Virus record (IMG/VR): IMGVR_UViG_2737471835_000006
Source: a virus
Lineage: Duplodnaviria > Heunggongvirae > Uroviricota > Caudoviricetes
DNA: 53,176 nt
Direction: 5' to 3' (one strand)
This document shows positions 11,506 to 37,679 of this stretch, piece by piece. The first letter of the stretch is position 1; the number at the start of each line of letters is the position of its first letter. The translations under genes and the position numbers were made by a program. Under the pieces are notes generated by a model. It did no database searches and was not told the DNA's origin. It was given only the letters and a program-made list of their open reading frames with translations.

Positions 11506-12182
11506 AATCGTTTACCTGTTTTAGGGTCTACGTGAACGCGTCCTTTCACTCGACCGCGCAAATCTTTCTCAAAAAAGCCCATGAAAACAGGGCCAATGTT
11601 TTCAAAAATATAATCATCGATAGCATCCTCAAGCGCGTCGTGCACAGGTACGCGAGCCTCTTCGATTCCTCCGCGAGCCAGTCGAATCCAGACGCTTTTC
11701 GCACCGTAGCGTTTCGCTACGAATGAATCTGGCCAACTAATCATCGCCAGCCCTGCACTTTTGGGCGTAAAAGTTGCCCCTCGAGCGCCTTTTTTTGTTT
11801 TCAAAAATTGACCGGTCTCTGGATTGCGAGGCTGCTTCTGCTTCCTGGGATTTTGTAATTGCCCCTTTAGCTCAGATACACGGAAATCGTTCAGGCCGTA
11901 CCAGAGTTTTACGCTACTCAGATCTCCTGCCCCTTCTTTTGTAAAATTGCGGCGCTTAATGAACGGTTTGATTCGTTTATTTACGGCCTTATGATTTTTA
12001 GCTGCCAGTGCAGTCAAAATCATTCCTGCTGAAATTCGGTGCATATGCTTTGCAGTTCGGTTCAGCGCTCTGTTGTATGCCATCAGCATCTGATGTTGCG
12101 TCGCGCTGATTTCGACTCTGAGCTGCTCCAGCGCCGAAACATCGATATCGAACATCTGCGCGTTACTACGTAAATCGGCCAC
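11502..12182 (-). CDS. Putative virion morphogenesis / tail completion protein
   Basis: 226 aa basic protein; position equivalent to P2 R/S. Confidence 0.4.
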   Translation of the reverse strand: MADLRSNAQMFDIDVSALEQLRVEISATQHQMLMAYNRALNRTAKHMHRISAGMILTALAAKNHKAVNKRIKPFIKRRNFTKEGAGDLSSVKLWYGLNDFRVSELKGQLQNPRKQKQPRNPETGQFLKTKKGARGATFTPKSAGLAMISWPDSFVAKRYGAKSVWIRLARGGIEEARVPVHDALEDAIDDYIFENIGPVFMGFFEKDLRGRVKGRVHVDPKTGKRL

Positions 12183-23741: not shown

Positions 23742-24034
23742 CAGATAAACTCCTCATCGCGCCAGATAGCCAGTGTTCTGAAAACTCCCTCAGCGTGCAT
23801 CAACAACAATGAGTCGTGCTCGTAATCCGTTTTTGTACGTCCGTCGATGGCATCGTGACACGCACTGCAGGCGATAGCGCCCTGCATATCGTGAGGTTTG
23901 ATGGCTGTGCCGCACGTTCCGGCGAGACGATAATGAGCCAGTACGCTGGTTTCAGGATTGTGATTGCACACACCGGGGATACGCACAGTACAAGCGCGAC
24001 CACGTGCAGCTTTTCTCAGGTCGATTTTTTTCAT
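23741..24034 (-). CDS. YbcO-like (DUF1364-type) Cys-rich putative nuclease
   Basis: 97 aa; LRKAARGRACTVRIPGVCNHNPETSVLAH ... ACSACHD resembles the DLP12 YbcO family; nin-region position before Q. Confidence 0.5.
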   Translation of the reverse strand: MKKIDLRKAARGRACTVRIPGVCNHNPETSVLAHYRLAGTCGTAIKPHDMQGAIACSACHDAIDGRTKTDYEHDSLLLMHAEGVFRTLAIWRDEEFI

Positions 24035-24627
24035 GATGTGTAATCCAACAGCTGCGCGGCAGCATTTTCAGCGGCCTCCTGAGAGGCAAACGTGCGGAAC
24101 AAAATATAATTCCACAGCACATCTAAAACGGCTGAATACAGTTGACCGAACTCAAGATCGTCCATCGCAGCAAACGAGATTGAACGAGGTACACGCATCA
24201 AACTACCATCTGGCATCTGATGAACGTCATAAAATCCAGATTCCATAGTCGCCCAGGCGCGAAACGCCTCGAACGACTTCACCGCACTGATATTCCCCGC
24301 GCGCTTTTCCGACTCATCGAGAAGATACTGATCAGCCAGCTCAGCCATGACATCACCATGCCCACCGTAATACGCCAGTAACTTAACGTAGCCGTGGACC
24401 AGTTCTCGCTCCGCAGGAGAAATAGCCCCTCCGGACGGATGCCAGTAATCAAAGCCCAGGTTGAGAAGTGAGAAAAATTTACGGTGAAACGCGGGATTAC
24501 GTGCCTGTTTGAAATCTGCATACACAACAGCACCTGGTTTGACTCGTTCAGTCAACCAGCGTTGCGTGTCTGGTGTCGCGGGTATTAGCGAACCGCCGGA
24601 TACCCTGATAAATGAATGCTGCGCCAT
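24031..24627 (-). CDS. Hypothetical nin-region protein
   Basis: 198 aa; 4-nt overlap with the downstream gene. Confidence 0.45.
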   Translation of the reverse strand: MAQHSFIRVSGGSLIPATPDTQRWLTERVKPGAVVYADFKQARNPAFHRKFFSLLNLGFDYWHPSGGAISPAERELVHGYVKLLAYYGGHGDVMAELADQYLLDESEKRAGNISAVKSFEAFRAWATMESGFYDVHQMPDGSLMRVPRSISFAAMDDLEFGQLYSAVLDVLWNYILFRTFASQEAAENAAAQLLDYTS

Positions 24628-24704
24628 GTTTAACTCCAGGTGGCGCGGCAGTGTTCAGAAAATGGTGCCGGGTGTTCAATCCAGCACCGATATTATACCG
24701 TGTT

Positions 24705-24884
24705 TTACGCGTCAGGGGGTGTAATAGTATATCCAGCTATTTCTGCCAACTCGAGAAACGCCATCAGGCTGGCAATCCGTTCATCATCGGTCAGAACACG
24801 CACACCAACGATGTGTCCGTCCTTACGCTTGATAACAGCCCGGCATGTTTCCGGTAGTTCGCCTATAGATTCTTGAATATTCAT
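24705..24884 (-). CDS. Small protein behind a LexA-box promoter; candidate SOS-induced antirepressor
   Basis: 59 aa ORF (MNIQESIGELPETCRAVIKRKDGHIVGVRVLTDDERIASLMAFLELAEIAGYTITPPDA), too short for the six-frame track; SD GGGGGAAG 4-6 nt before the ATG. Confidence 0.45.
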   Translation of the reverse strand: MNIQESIGELPETCRAVIKRKDGHIVGVRVLTDDERIASLMAFLELAEIAGYTITPPDA

Positions 24885-24904
24885 GTCTTCCCCCTAACGC
24901 CATT

Positions 24905-24942
24905 ACCTGTACATTTATACAGTATTTTATGGCATTTGTCAT
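24905..24942 (-). promoter_or_regulatory. Sigma70-like promoter with overlapping LexA (SOS) box
   Basis: Minus strand reads ATGACA, 17 nt, TATAAA; the 20-mer TACTGTATAAATGTACAGGT (CTGT-N8-ACAG) overlaps the -10 element. Confidence 0.6.
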
Positions 24943-25035
24943 AACGCCAGATACAATGAGGGAATAATGAACAATTATATTCACGTCGTGAATTTTATTA
25001 AACGGTTTTATAGGAGATTAAACCGTTTATGGTCA

Positions 25036-25677
25036 TTATTTATCACTCCTGTAAATTGAAATTAACCATTTTCTAATCGTCGACGCTGCAGGTGGGTCAG
25101 AGTATTTCGCCACAAAAATACCGGATATGTATTGCACACCACGCGATAATGGCGCTGTCGGGTTTTCAGTAAAAAAACGATCAGCCAGTTCAATGGCTTC
25201 GCTTTTTAATCTGTGCTGTGGTCGTCCTCCGCCCTTAGTGCCAAGGTAGCGCGCCAGTTGTTTGAAACGGTAGGCGATGATCAACGGTCGCATCATCATA
25301 TTGAAAAAATCGCGGGCATCGTTGTCAGCGCCTTGCGCTAGCAACAGTGCAAAAAACAGATACGGGATTGTGTACACTTCAGGAGATATACGAACCCGTT
25401 CACAAGTTGGTGGAGCCAACTCAATAAGTAAGTCAGCCAGCGGATTCCCCTTTTCTCCACGTTTGTAATAGCGATACAGCGGCCCGATATCAAGTTCACT
25501 CACGTCGATTTCAGGATGCCCGGCAACGGCTGTACGTATCTCTTCTGCCAGAGCGTCAAATATTGCCCCGGTCCGCTCAAGATAGAGCCTCCGGGTCGAG
25601 CCGCGATCATCCAGAGCTCGTAACATATCTAATCGGCTAACGAAAGTTTCAGGCCAGTCCTCATAGAAGGTTTTCAT
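25036..25677 (-). CDS. Hypothetical protein
   Basis: Start placed at MKTFYEDW, which has SD GAGGT 5 nt upstream; the six-frame ORF begins at an upstream TTG (25713). Confidence 0.4.
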   Translation of the reverse strand: MKTFYEDWPETFVSRLDMLRALDDRGSTRRLYLERTGAIFDALAEEIRTAVAGHPEIDVSELDIGPLYRYYKRGEKGNPLADLLIELAPPTCERVRISPEVYTIPYLFFALLLAQGADNDARDFFNMMMRPLIIAYRFKQLARYLGTKGGGRPQHRLKSEAIELADRFFTENPTAPLSRGVQYISGIFVAKYSDPPAASTIRKWLISIYRSDK

Positions 25678-25756
25678 AATTACCTCGAATAATAAAAACT
25701 GCATTATTTGCAAAATTTATTATTCGTTTTCACATCGCAGGGTTCTATAAAAAAGA

Positions 25757-25776
25757 AAACCCGCCGAAGCGGGTTA
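25757..25776 (-). terminator. Rho-independent terminator candidate
   Basis: Stem ACCCGC/GCGGGT with CGAA loop; T-rich tract follows on the minus strand, directly after the stop of the 25796-26074 gene. Confidence 0.5.
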
Positions 25777-25795
25777 GTTATTCATTTGCACCAGA

Positions 25796-26074
25796 TTATG
25801 AGGCCATACCGTAGGCTTTTTTATGCATCCCATGGTCATAGCCCATATTATATGCTTCAAAAGCATCTTTATGACGGACATGCCCAGCCTGGCTTTCGGG
25901 TAAATCACCTAAAACAGAGTCATCAACCGCACGCGGAACGCCGATTAATGCATGCCACATACCTTTATCATAGGCACATCCACAACACTTGTGCCGCCCA
26001 ACGTTACCCTGATTTGCAGAAAGAACATCAAACATACTGTCGTGACGATGTGACTTTTTACAGATGTGTTTCAT
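25796..26074 (-). CDS. Hypothetical His/Cys-rich small protein
   Basis: 92 aa with many His and a CCGC motif; followed by a hairpin terminator. Confidence 0.35.
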   Translation of the reverse strand: MKHICKKSHRHDSMFDVLSANQGNVGRHKCCGCAYDKGMWHALIGVPRAVDDSVLGDLPESQAGHVRHKDAFEAYNMGYDHGMHKKAYGMAS

Positions 26075-26542
26075 TCATTGACCTATATCATTTTCGGTAA
26101 TGAATGCTTTACACGGGATCCCGGTTGAGGTAATCTCCCAAACCGAGATCTCAACGAAAGCATTAACCGATGTTTTTGTATGGCCCTGACAGTTGGCGCT
26201 GTCAGGGCTTTCCCTTTGATGCGACTCTAAAAACTTCGCAACCTCCAGATCCTATCCAGGACCAAGAAAAACTTCAATGAAAAGATCAAGTTAGATCTGT
26301 ATTTTTTTACAGATGTAATAAATCACACATGTAATAGCCTTCCCTTTCCGTTCTCATCTGGCCTCTTGTGGCATCCATTTTTTTAAGAAACATATGGACG
26401 CTTAAAAAACCACTAATGTCATGATTATCATGTATGTTTTTACTGGAAACATTGAGCCATCCACAATGCAGCGTAAAAAGCAAGCAATTCACAAGATTTT
26501 AAAGTGATTTATCTGGAAGACTTTACTACTAACAGTTAATAT

Positions 26543-26587
26543 CGTACCAGAAGTGCAGAATTTGCACTTTCACAGGAAAGTGGTACG
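26543..26587. promoter_or_regulatory. Nested inverted repeats upstream of the ImmA-like gene (candidate operator)
   Basis: CGTACCA ... TGGTACG arms enclosing GTGCAGAATTTGCAC, about 55 bp upstream of the 26642 start. Confidence 0.35.
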
Positions 26588-26641
26588 GAACATGTTGTCT
26601 ATATTTCGACCAACAATCGTAATGCAGTAACTGGAGGAGCT

Positions 26642-27130
26642 ATGGCTACCAACCCAAGAGAGCACGCCCGGCGAGTGCTGGACACGTTCTGGTGCGGGCG
26701 TGGTTTCCCTGTTGATCCAGCGAAAATTGCTCACGACATGGGATTAGATGTTTTTATTACCGATCTTCCTGGGAAAGTTTCTGGCGCACTGATTAAACAA
26801 AAAGATCAAGATCCAGCGATCTTTCTAAACAGTGATGACAACAAAGTTCGTCAACGTTTTTCATGTGGGCATGAGTTGGGGCATTACATCGCCCGGCAAG
26901 CATCGCATAGTGATGAATATGAGTACGTTGATTTACGTGGCGAAACCGCAAGCGCCGGAACGCATCCTGATGAAATTTTTGCGAACAAGTTCGCAGCAGA
27001 ACTTCTGATGCCGGTTGATGAGGTCAGAAAACTGCACGCTGACGGCCAACCAAGTTATATAATGGCGCATTATTTTGGCGTATCTGACGATGCGATGACT
27101 TATCGTTTAAAGAACTTGAGGTTGGGGTAA
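26642..27130 (+). CDS. ImmA/IrrE-family zinc metallopeptidase
   Basis: 162 aa; HEXXH motif in CGHELGHY; strong SD GGAGGAG. Confidence 0.7.
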   Translation: MATNPREHARRVLDTFWCGRGFPVDPAKIAHDMGLDVFITDLPGKVSGALIKQKDQDPAIFLNSDDNKVRQRFSCGHELGHYIARQASHSDEYEYVDLRGETASAGTHPDEIFANKFAAELLMPVDEVRKLHADGQPSYIMAHYFGVSDDAMTYRLKNLRLG

Positions 27131-27139
27131 CGCTTTAGA

Positions 27140-27745
27140 ATGCCATCGGATGACGATTTTAACAGCCGTTTCAAACAGGAAGTTGCACGCCGACTGAAGG
27201 ATTCCCTCAACCTACACCGTCAGTTAGCAGAAGAGGTTGAGCCGGGGGACGATGAAACCCCGGTTCAGTCTCCTGACGAAACTTCACCTCAGCCAAAGGT
27301 TTCGCACGCCCCCAAAAAAACGGCTGTCCGTATTCGCGGAATAGCCAGAAAAAGAGCTGCCGAAGCTCGCAAAATGGCTGTAGCTGCGTCTAGCAAAAGA
27401 ATTCCAACTGTTACACCCTCTCAACAAGTCACCCGTACTGAGAGTAAAATCTTGACCGAGTTCACATCTGTGAAACAGGTGAATTCACTTGATACCGAGC
27501 ATGAGCGCAAACAACTCAACAACAAAGATTTTGAAGCAGAAATCGCTCTAAAAAAACGATACGGGAAATGGTTCCTGATTATCCTTGCTTGCCAACTTCT
27601 GATAATGAATGGTGTATTTATTGCCGACGGCGCAGGTAAGCTGGAATTTGAGGATTTAACACTACAGTTGTACATGGGCGGTACTTTGACAGAGGTATTC
27701 GGCCTCGTGCTGGTCGTGACAAAATACCTTTTTAAACGCAAGTAA
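27140..27745 (+). CDS. Membrane protein with disordered N-terminus and two C-terminal TM helices
   Basis: 201 aa; starts 10 nt after the ImmA-like stop; C-terminal WFLIILACQLLIMNGVFIA and GGTLTEVFGLVLVVTKYLF hydrophobic segments. Confidence 0.5.
   Translation: MPSDDDFNSRFKQEVARRLKDSLNLHRQLAEEVEPGDDETPVQSPDETSPQPKVSHAPKKTAVRIRGIARKRAAEARKMAVAASSKRIPTVTPSQQVTRTESKILTEFTSVKQVNSLDTEHERKQLNNKDFEAEIALKKRYGKWFLIILACQLLIMNGVFIADGAGKLEFEDLTLQLYMGGTLTEVFGLVLVVTKYLFKRK
27667..27745 (+). repeat. Direct repeat copy 1 (3' end of the 27140-27745 gene)
   Basis: About 75 bp nearly identical to 31269-31346 (one indel, about four mismatches). Confidence 0.85.
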
Positions 27746-31374: not shown

Positions 31375-32169
31375 TCAAAATGCTGAATCAGCAACGGATA
31401 CAACCGACTTTTTCCCCATTACCATCAATTTATCCAGCGTCATACTTCGCAGGTTGTCGCTGTGGATCACCAGATACCCTGCCCGCTCAGCGATCTCTTT
31501 GAAAGCGTCAAACGTCATCAGATGTTCGCCTTTGGCAACATGGCGCATCCTGGTCACTTTTCCATTTTTGATAGTGGTGATAAAAGAAAAATCTGGAATG
31601 GTTGGCTGATTTTCATCGAGTAGCAGGCAGTGGATGTATTCAATCGCCTCTAACATTTGCGTCTGTGACAGTTGTTCTATGTGAGAGACGGCGAAGCGTT
31701 GATGAATCATGGTGTAGGCATCGGGATACATCATGCCTTTCTTACCGACCAGCATATTAACGGCATCACGTAAGGGAGTACGGTCATCGGTAGTTGTACT
31801 CCGCCTCTCTGGACGCTGTCTAAAATAACAATCTTCCAGCTTTTCGAAAACTTCCCAGGCCTGTTCTGTTTCCAGCATTTTGGCATGGCGAGCTGCGCCG
31901 CATTCTGTCCAGAGGATGAGAGAGCGGACATTTCTGGCGATTTTCACAGGAGGTCTTAAAGACATGCTGTGCTTAAATTCGCGCAACTCCTCACCTTCGA
32001 GCAAAAAGTAATGCTTCCCGACCACGAATCGCTCTGAGTTCCGGTTATGGTTTTTACGAATGTAATCCGGCTCTGTGCCATAGAGGTTCGCGAGTAATTC
32101 GGTGGTGAGGACGGGAAGTTGGTTGTGGATAATCGGGGAGATGGCTGCTGCGGATACTTGAGTTGTCAT
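31375..32169 (-). CDS. Phage antirepressor-like protein (ORF6N-type N-terminal domain)
   Basis: 264 aa; N-terminal LLANLYGTEPDYIRKNHNRNSERFVVGKHYFLLEGEELREFK resembles the ORF6N domain. Confidence 0.55.
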   Translation of the reverse strand: MTTQVSAAAISPIIHNQLPVLTTELLANLYGTEPDYIRKNHNRNSERFVVGKHYFLLEGEELREFKHSMSLRPPVKIARNVRSLILWTECGAARHAKMLETEQAWEVFEKLEDCYFRQRPERRSTTTDDRTPLRDAVNMLVGKKGMMYPDAYTMIHQRFAVSHIEQLSQTQMLEAIEYIHCLLLDENQPTIPDFSFITTIKNGKVTRMRHVAKGEHLMTFDAFKEIAERAGYLVIHSDNLRSMTLDKLMVMGKKSVVSVADSAF

Positions 32170-32441: not shown

Positions 32442-32663
32442 TCAATCAACTTCAAACCTCCGGTGTTCACATTCCATACACTCAACGGGAACATCATCGC
32501 GATGCAAGTCCACATATCCGACCCGCTTATACAACTCAATAATGTCCGGTAACGTGACCAGATGTTTTTCCGGTTCCAACACCTCAGCCTTGGTTACTTT
32601 GTAATCTGAAATATAGAGCACTATCCGCCCGTTCCGTGGTAACTCCAGTTTATCGCCAAACAT
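32442..32663 (-). CDS. Hypothetical protein
   Basis: 73 aa ORF in the nin-like region. Confidence 0.3.
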   Translation of the reverse strand: MFGDKLELPRNGRIVLYISDYKVTKAEVLEPEKHLVTLPDIIELYKRVGYVDLHRDDVPVECMECEHRRFEVD

Positions 32664-37197: not shown

Positions 37198-37209
37198 AAT
37201 CCCTCCACG

Positions 37210-37260
37210 TAACTTTTGTTAGCAAAATAAATACTAACGAAAGTTATGTCAAGTTAACTT
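37210..37260. promoter_or_regulatory. Operator region of the repressor/cro switch
   Basis: 15-bp inverted repeat TAACTTTTGTTAGCA / TACTAACGAAAGTTA separated by 7 bp, plus palindrome AAGTTAACTT. Confidence 0.55.
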
Positions 37261-37265
37261 ATATT

Positions 37266-37679
37266 ATGAGGATGAAGAATTTGATGCTTAGCGACCGTTT
37301 ATCTCAAAGACGCAAACAGCTTGGTCTAACCCAACAACAGCTTGCTGATATGGTTGGAAGATCGAGTGTGAGCGTTTTTAAATGGGAAAGCGGACAAAAT
37401 GAACCAAAAGGTCAGAACTTGCTGGCTTTGGCCAATGCACTTAAGTGTTCTGCCACATGGCTGCTTTTTGGTGACGAAGACCAGGCGCCAACTCCGGTAG
37501 ACGAATTACCAACAGAGCTGGATTCACGTCAAAAAAGATTGTTAGAGTTATTTGATTCATTACCCGAGTCAGAAAAAGAAAAGCAACTAATTGAATTAGA
37601 AGATAAAGTTGAAAACTTTAATCGTTTATTTGAAGAGTTACTGGTTACCAGAAAGAAACTAACCCCCATCAAAAAATAA
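37266..37679 (+). CDS. XRE-family HTH repressor (CI-like) lacking a LexA-type peptidase domain
   Basis: 137 aa; HTH LTQQQLADMVGRSSVSVFKWESG; acidic C-terminus; start codon choice among the first three Met is uncertain. Confidence 0.7.
   Translation: MRMKNLMLSDRLSQRRKQLGLTQQQLADMVGRSSVSVFKWESGQNEPKGQNLLALANALKCSATWLLFGDEDQAPTPVDELPTELDSRQKRLLELFDSLPESEKEKQLIELEDKVENFNRLFEELLVTRKKLTPIKK

Follow-up and report, generated by a model that had tools for sequence, protein, structure and literature searches.

The 53,176-nucleotide virus record IMGVR_UViG_2737471835_000006, the whole of which is called the window below, carries on its minus strand a 59-codon gene whose promoter is covered by a predicted LexA box. 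The product of this gene falls into the family of Rem, a small antirepressor of the Qin prophage of Escherichia coli K-12, and the repressor of the element is a short protein of the DicA subfamily. Judging from sequence comparisons and from the analogy with characterized systems, a LexA-controlled Rem-family antirepressor probably triggers the induction of this prophage upon DNA damage.

The host element is an E. coli prophage whose integrase adjoins tRNA-Ser/mtfA in the RefSeq annotation and whose rightward direction corresponds to the minus strand of the window. It combines a lambdoid early region with a myovirus-type tail. From the integrase, the genes follow in the order divergent short helix-turn-helix (HTH) repressor/Cro pair, YdaT, replication initiator, DnaB helicase, a long region of accessory genes, DUF1367, DUF1364/YbcO, Q, lysis genes, lambda-like head and baseplate-type tail. 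The gene behind the LexA box lies approximately 12 kb from the repressor, between the replication genes and Q. A chromosomal prophage of E. coli E62 matches the 501 bases around it at 100%, and copies with 99-100% identity are present in strains E62, E24377A and SE11. The region is carried by 444 of 5426 complete E. coli genomes (~8%), always in the chromosome and with a copy at 95-100% identity in 439 of the 444 carriers. The phage vB_EcoM-705R4 is 97.8% identical.

A predicted LexA box over a promoter

The elements of the locus, in the direction of transcription, are the following:

24937..24942, minus strand: -35 hexamer ATGACA, read directly; unchanged in six diverged loci in which the adjacent spacer is variable
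24914-24919, minus strand: -10 hexamer TATAAA, separated from the -35 hexamer by a 17-nucleotide (nt) spacer and located inside the LexA box
24905..24924, minus strand: LexA (SOS) box TACTGTATAAATGTACAGGT, a predicted operator with its CTGT-N8-ACAG core at 24907-24922
24887..24895, minus strand: Shine-Dalgarno (SD) sequence AGGGGGAAG, separated by 2 nt from the ATG at 24884 (its GGGGGA core by 4 nt)
24705..24884, minus strand: 59-codon gene, WP_001025459.1, encoding a small acidic protein of the Rem family (phrog_340), a predicted SOS-induced antirepressor

Read on the minus strand, the box, both hexamers, the SD sequence and the open reading frame (ORF) all lie where the original prediction had placed them. 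The box agrees with 16 of the 20 positions of the consensus TACTGTATATATATACAGTA, both half-sites being perfect, and it spans the expected transcription start as well as the -10 hexamer, so that the claimed overlap with the -10 element of a good promoter was correct. By eye, the promoter (ATGACA-17-TATAAA) matches 10 of 12 consensus positions; it is missing from the list of a promoter scanner because the latter demands a T at the last -10 position.

The bare pattern CTGT-N8-ACAG is not significant by itself, as it occurs twice in the window against 0.66 expected occurrences and 16 of 100 shuffled windows reach two. A symmetric weight matrix of 20 positions was therefore derived from 29 SOS boxes belonging to the published E. 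coli regulon. With this matrix, the box scores 21.6 bits, which is more than 19 of the 29 reference boxes and the best score of the window (the next site has 12.9 bits). None of 200 windows simulated with a first-order Markov model reached this value (simulated maximum, 20.6 bits), in agreement with the earlier description of the box as canonical.

The conservation of the region was studied in alleles recovered with their flanks: P0004 (protein 75% identical to that of the window), P0010 (56%) and an allele from Escherichia whittamii (100%). The latter was the only locus found when related loci were searched by close alignment, and none was found with single distant members on viral contigs. 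Across the alleles with 56-75% protein identity, the -35 hexamer, CTGTATAAA, ACAG and GGGGGAA are invariant, whereas free variation is seen in the 12-14 nt that separate the -35 hexamer from the box and in the interval from the box to the SD sequence; the GGGGGAA of the SD sequence is unchanged throughout the alignment (A7). The equivalent boxes of the alleles reach 22-28 bits, and 19-21 nt separate their ends from the start codon, compared to 21 nt in the window; the layout of a box over a promoter is kept in six diverged loci. In the diverged alleles, the LexA box and the promoter are thus preserved as a footprint.

Two other sites were considered in the vicinity. A second promoter-like site, TTAATA-16-TATAAT, is found at 24974-25001 on the minus strand, 30 nt upstream of the LexA promoter. 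Its hexamers are conserved and its spacer contains the palindrome ATTCACGACGTGAAT, which was rejected as an operator: it has no second copy in the window and is not kept in the P0010-type loci. The other site is the second occurrence of the bare pattern:

26295-26314 (core 26297-26312): ATCTGTATTTTTTTACAGAT, CTGT-N8-ACAG, between the gene for a 92-amino acid (aa) protein and the ImmA gene

This sequence overlaps a promoter-like TTTACA-18-TGTAAT on the plus strand. It was not accepted as a LexA site, since its 12.3 bits lie under all 29 reference boxes and 61 of the 200 simulated windows equal it. It is retained in sister prophages, the overall similarity of which is too high to be informative.

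A small protein of the Rem family

The original prediction held that the 59-codon ORF would be missed by routine annotation. This was wrong, as RefSeq/PGAP contains it as WP_001025459.1 (“hypothetical protein”) and it is also annotated in vB_EcoM-705R4. The claim of a 59-aa ORF with a good SD sequence did hold: the ORF runs from 24884 to 24705 with AGGGGGAAG upstream, and the comparison of the window with the P0004 allele reveals purifying selection (nonsynonymous divergence dN 0.12, synonymous divergence dS 0.69, dN/dS 0.175). An exhaustive profile search in 1.84 billion representative proteins recovered 91 relatives. Most of them are stand-alone proteins of 55-70 aa; some correspond to the C-terminal ~45 residues of proteins of 180-290 aa with Rha, Bro-N, P22_AR_N or KilA-N domains at their N-termini. 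Selection and family distribution thus indicate that the 59-aa product is a real protein. Its AlphaFold2 model, computed from the alignment of these relatives, is confident (predicted local distance difference test, pLDDT, 90) and comprises a short helix, then a beta-hairpin at residues 16-30 and another helix at residues 40-49.

The affiliation of this protein emerges from profile comparisons. It falls into phrog_340, annotated as “unknown function”, at 1.6e-20, and Rem falls into the same PHROG at 4.4e-21. The alignment of the family matched Rem in hhalign with a probability of 92.7%, and the comparison with an alignment of the Rem family reached 94.9% (E-value 4.5e-8), covering Rem residues 36-79. 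In HMMER searches with the hidden Markov model (HMM) of the family, Rem was the best match outside the window (4.4e-6). Precomputed matches to the Pfam family PF27490 (“Rem”), all weak or faint, exist for the relatives P0012, P0013 and P0030, and none is recorded for the 59-aa protein's own clusters. The protein itself had no match in Pfam or NCBIfam, DinI included, in a copy of Pfam that lacks PF27490 and in which Rem is also unmatched. By these comparisons, the 59-aa protein is a member of the Rem family, phrog_340.

Two other Rem-like sequences are present in the prophage:

32442..32663, minus strand: second stand-alone Rem-like gene, 73 aa, WP_000466604.1, in the early-right operon (family HMM 6e-13; phrog_340 4.2e-21)
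31450..31575, minus strand: third Rem-like module, residues 199-240 of a 264-aa ORF6N “anti-repressor” (gene 31375-32169)

The third module was detected by phrog_340 (3e-12), by BLASTP to the 59-aa protein (3e-6) and by the family HMM (3.7e-16), and the ORF6N domain occupies the N-terminus of the protein that contains it. No LexA box was found for these two genes of the early-right operon. The two extra modules may serve to lock induction in, or they may target repressors of other, co-resident prophages.

The prophage repressor

The predicted target of the antirepressor is the following protein:

37272..37679 (earlier start 37266), plus strand: prophage repressor, 135 aa, DicA subfamily

The domain search of this protein found HTH_3 only and no S24 peptidase domain, in line with the original claim of a short XRE repressor without a LexA-like S24 domain; self-cleavage in the style of lambda CI is therefore not possible. 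The repressor passes the NCBIfam model NF007257 (“transcriptional repressor DicA”) with 199 bits against a cut-off of 101, and it is 52% identical to DicA over 128 aa and 31% identical to GtgR of Gifsy-2. Its only PDB matches are to the N-terminal DNA-binding domains of P22 C2 and of the 434 repressor. Its gene forms a divergent pair with Cro, next to which lies YdaT.

The C-terminal region of the repressor (residues ~88-128) contains the motif LLELFxxLPESEKExxLxELxxKVxxFxxLFEELL. The same motif is found in DicA, GtgR and two repressors from other loci (L022:1522-1977 and L031:128-520), the N-terminal HTH domains of which are strongly different. It is tempting to speculate that this motif could be a common docking site for antirepressors of the Rem and Gfo types.

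Distant relatives and allele pairing

The 59-codon ORF is followed by this gene:

24031..24627, minus strand: DUF1367 gene (irsA homologue; Pfam DUF1367 1.3e-78), conserved downstream neighbor, possibly co-transcribed

Its protein is 56% identical to STM1020 of Gifsy-2. There, the order is terminator, LexA box (23.6 bits), dinI, gftA, STM1020 (DUF1367), further genes, NinG and Q. The 59-codon ORF occupies the dinI-gftA slot, directly upstream of the DUF1367/irsA homologue, with dinI missing.

The encoding contigs of nine representative relatives were examined. Five of these relatives (P0010, P0012, P0013, P0014 and P0030) are directly upstream of DUF1367 in the nin-like regions of otherwise different phages, and four of the five are closely preceded by a strong LexA box:

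P0010: box of 27.7 bits, 21 nt from the start
P0012 (protein 37% identical): box of 23.2 bits, 18 nt from the start
P0013: box of 23.8 bits, 76 nt from the start
P0030: box of 25.5 bits, 103 nt from the start

Strong LexA boxes thus extend to homologues from other phages with no more than 37-42% identity. The P0012 and P0013 phages have an HTH repressor (151 aa or 133 aa) divergent from Cro/YdaS, followed by YdaT, an initiator and DnaB, and no M78 protease is present in their recovered regions. The repressor of the P0013 phage is 63% identical to that of the window; that of the P0012 phage shares with it only the C-terminal 40 residues, at 65% identity. Accordingly, at least these two phages, whose immunity region was recovered, carry short DicA-type repressors.

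A sister prophage from strain YZMc3-1 provides an additional comparison. Its flanking genes are nearly identical to those of the window and its ImmA protein is 100% identical, but its small-protein allele is 75% identical and its repressor only 32%. Both alleles therefore change together, as would be expected of a cognate pair, in this one case on which the observation rests.

Two members of the family occur in other settings. A 60-aa protein (39% identical) is encoded at L027:3477-3659, in the Stx1a-converting phage Stx1_499, within the left operon of Stx phages equipped with a full-length CI; it parallels FsoA of Fels-1, a CI-controlled antirepressor that acts on another prophage. P0015 is encoded at L013:3001-3189, in an island with an integrase, AlpA, Bro-N and a DUF927 primase that resembles a phage satellite, where a 16-bit LexA-like site is found just upstream of the AlpA gene (L013:1286-1305).

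Proposed mechanism and alternative explanations

The scenario that we favor starts from a lysogenic state kept by the 135-aa DicA-subfamily repressor, devoid of S24. In an undamaged cell, LexA would hold the promoter of the small gene shut. Upon DNA damage, the RecA-stimulated cleavage of LexA would open this promoter and the 59-aa protein would be made. By analogy with Rem and DicA, and with GfoA and GftA and their partners GfoR and GtgR, this protein would then bind the DicA-type repressor and remove it from operators near 37200-37270. Cro, YdaT and the replication genes would be derepressed, and later Q and lysis. The 73-aa gene and the ORF6N module, located in the repressor-controlled early operon, would be switched on only afterwards. 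Since no proteolysis of the repressor would be involved in the switch, it should be reversible if the damage is repaired.

Several observations weigh against this scenario. BLASTP detected no similarity between the 59-aa protein and Rem or GftA, and its model had no informative structural neighbor in the PDB or BFVD. The link to GftA, which is placed in another PHROG, is weak (hhalign 61%, E-value 8e-5; HMMER E-value 0.54). True Rem orthologues (83-86 aa; Qin, L006; mEp460_ev081, PPompW and a Rac-like phage; L028-L030) have no LexA box within 400 nt, their best sites scoring <8 bits, so membership of the Rem family does not by itself imply SOS control. No nearby LexA box was found for P0014, despite its link to DUF1367, or for P0015, P0018 and P0021, which are outside that context. 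In the LexA-controlled operons of Gifsy phages dinI comes first, and no dinI precedes the 59-codon ORF. Finally, the prophage has an ImmA/CapP-like protease that could offer another route to the inactivation of the repressor.

The alternative that best survives the comparison accepts the control of the promoter by LexA and denies that the 59-aa protein is the trigger of this prophage. The protein could act in trans on the repressors of other prophages, as FsoA of Fels-1 does on Gifsy-2, or it could have another SOS-related role, such as the modulation of RecA or LexA or a service to DUF1367/irsA. This reading would fit with DUF1367, rather than a repressor, being the gene's constant partner in the various lineages, with dinI and not an antirepressor being the first gene behind the LexA box in Gifsy phages, and with the two additional paralogues in the same prophage. 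Moreover, the family members found in the left operon of Stx phages with a full-length CI and in the satellite-like island cannot be SOS sensors there. Yet, the protein matches neither DinI nor any other Pfam or NCBIfam family, and it shares its PHROG with Rem, whose only known activity is DicA antirepression. A DicA-type repressor is present here and in both distant phages with a visible immunity region, and the small-protein allele switches together with the repressor allele in near-identical prophages. In view of these data, we regard this alternative as rather unlikely.

A second alternative assigns the inactivation of the short XRE repressor after damage to the ImmA/IrrE (CapP-like) protease, with the LexA-controlled peptide as an accessory, on the model of ImmA cleaving ImmR in ICEBs1 or CapP cleaving CapH. 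The protease is clearly recognizable (Peptidase_M78 7.7e-18; PADLOC capP 2.4e-25), a perfect CTGT-N8-ACAG core (26297-26312) lies 330 nt upstream of its gene over TTTACA-18-TGTAAT, and the XRE/HTH_3 repressor is weakly similar to the solved HTH chain 7t5u. Nevertheless, the arrangement of ImmR/ImmA systems is not that observed here: the M78 gene is ~10 kb from the repressor, on the opposite strand, paired with a gene for a 201-aa protein and without an adjacent HTH gene. The upstream box has the 12.3 bits that 61 of 200 simulated windows match. Related phages that retain the LexA-box gene lack the cassette, among them the two with a DicA-type repressor; the sister prophage, with only 32% identity in the repressor, has 100% identity in the protease. 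This mechanism therefore seems very unlikely.

As for the LexA-like palindrome and the ORF being functionless chance features, as the 0.66 expected occurrences of the bare pattern and the absence of the promoter from the scanner list might suggest, this notion is effectively refuted by the comparative data, given the matrix score unreached in 200 simulations, the conserved footprint, the recurrence of strong boxes upstream of distant homologues, the purifying selection and the 91-member family.

A broader hypothesis can be added to the favored scenario of a LexA-controlled trigger. The Rem-like unit of ~45 residues could be a portable repressor-binding module that exists in two formats, and the prophage could contain a three-tier circuit made of such modules; we put this forward tentatively and consider it possible but on balance doubtful. 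The unit may be defined by a beta-hairpin and a helix with the motif E-H-[IV]-A-S-L-x-x-F-x-E-L-A-x-x-A-G-Y. In its first format, it may form stand-alone peptides produced in response to differing signals (LexA here, phage early promoters elsewhere); in the second, it may be the C-terminal effector of “Ant” proteins with Bro-N, KilA-N, ORF6N, Rha or P22_AR_N domains. Within the circuit, the SOS copy may start induction, and the two repressor-controlled copies may lock it in or cross-induce neighboring prophages. Recognition would possibly involve the C-terminal LLELFxxLPESEK helix of DicA, GtgR and relatives with different DNA-binding domains.

Other elements of the prophage

Three other elements surround the locus:

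24664..24688, minus strand: hairpin GGTGCTGG-ATTGAACAC-CCGGCACC, between the small gene and DUF1367
25750-25775, minus strand: strong intrinsic terminator AACCCGCTTCGGCGGGTTTTCTTTTTT, after the 92-aa gene
26642-27745, plus strand: antisense two-gene cassette, ImmA/IrrE metalloprotease (26642-27130) and 201-aa protein

The hairpin occurs in Gifsy-2 and five other phage lineages. Seven other loci, among them Gifsy-2 (L003, ~11715-11740), share the unchanged loop CTGAACA and show covariation in the stems: five of the eight pairs are changed on both sides, and 78% of the alignment cells are paired compared to 21-45% in slid controls. A second CTGAACA is found after the hairpin at 24651-24658, as part of the motif CTGAACA..TGCYGYGCY. 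An intrinsic terminator was rejected, as the hairpin is not more stable than shuffled sequences (z = 0.04) and its T-run is not conserved, and Rfam had no match in 24300-26700. The hairpin may be a protein-binding RNA or DNA element, perhaps boxB-like, controlling DUF1367/irsA. Another candidate terminator, the AT-rich palindrome AAACGGTTT...AAACCGTTT after the gene for a 213-aa protein, was also rejected because its inverted repeat is not conserved in L004.

The stem-loop of the terminator AACCCGCTTCGGCGGGTTTTCTTTTTT is found again upstream of rem in Qin (ACCCGCTTCGGCGGGTTTT), and a close variant (CCCGCTGCGGCGGGTTTTTT) lies upstream of the LexA box and dinI of Gifsy-2; the three sequences differ only in their T-rich tails. 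From this likeness, AACCCGCTTCGGCGGGTTTTCTTTTTT looks like a shared terminator of nin regions.

In the antisense cassette, the 162-aa ImmA/IrrE protein is shorter than the 242-position capP profile that it matches, and the 201-aa protein has no family besides phrog_5346. No HTH gene is adjacent to the cassette, which could be a defence or regulatory moron.

Significance and comparison with known systems

If correct, the scenario of a LexA-controlled Rem-family trigger would explain how DNA damage, such as that caused by quinolones or mitomycin C, is sensed in a common E. coli prophage family with DicA-type repressors, and would provide a natural SOS input for a Rem-family antirepressor. Antirepressors can also work on repressors other than their cognate ones, so the three Rem-like modules are relevant to the cross-induction of co-resident prophages, including the Stx phages with family members. 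The concept of such control was established by Lemire et al. (2011), and the antirepressor activity of Rem was reported in 2023; the concept is unchanged by this locus, which, on the comparative data, is a further and well-supported predicted example that extends it in a testable way. What may be new is the SOS input for a Rem-family protein and the presence of the ~45-residue module as the C-terminus of many large “Ant” proteins, with three copies of the module in this prophage.

The large “Ant” proteins (Bro-N, KilA-N, ORF6N, Rha, P22_AR_N) are related to the 59-aa protein in that their C-terminal ~45 residues are homologous to the whole of it. They differ from it by their size (180-290 aa), by their added N-terminal domain and, in the case of the one found here, by not being LexA-controlled.

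Tum of coliphage 186 and AntC of N15 are expressed from LexA-repressed promoters, and their products bind and inactivate non-cleavable repressors; Tum has 146 aa and a DinI-like C-terminal half (Lemire, Figueroa-Bossi and Bossi 2011, PMC3121763). The 59-aa protein has no DinI-like region, and its likeness to Tum and AntC lies in the predicted control and mode of action. Furthermore, 186 and N15 are P2-like and N15-like phages with unrelated repressors.

The resemblance to the Gifsy phages of Salmonella concerns the control. Gifsy-1 and Gifsy-2, as well as Gifsy-3, encode the small LexA-controlled antirepressors GfoA, GftA and GfhA, which act on short non-cleavable repressors, and this type of control was predicted to be common in E. 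coli; DicA and RacR were listed in the non-cleavable GfoR/GtgR group, and induction without proteolysis of the repressor was argued to be reversible (PMC3121763). Both here and in the Gifsy phages, a short non-cleavable repressor coexists with a LexA-controlled unit located outside the immunity region, between the replication genes and Q. In contrast, GftA of Gifsy-2 has 73 aa, a GUG start and a place in phrog_4847. Of the original proposal of a Gifsy- or Tum-like antirepressor, the antirepressor logic is thus supported by the computations, but the protein is of the Rem type and not detectably of the GfoA/GftA or Tum types.

Rem is the closest known counterpart of the protein. When expressed, it relieves DicA repression 165-fold; it was reached from GfoA and FsoA by iterated BLAST, and its inducing signal was stated as unknown (Ragunathan and Vanderpool 2023, PMC10448788). 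Both proteins belong to phrog_340 and the partner here is a DicA-subfamily repressor. Both genes are located in a nin-like region, a few genes upstream of Q, and the record of a Rac-like phage has rem (“prophage antirepressor”), irsA, ybcO and Q in the same order as the window. In Qin, mEp460_ev081, PPompW and the Rac-like phage, rem always comes after a hok/mok cassette and a terminator. Rem differs by its length (83 aa) and by an extra N-terminal hairpin-like unit, the 59-aa protein aligning only to Rem residues 36-79. By its sequence and its upstream region, the gene described here is a short LexA-wired member of the Rem family, in which a Rem-type protein is combined with a Gifsy-type control.

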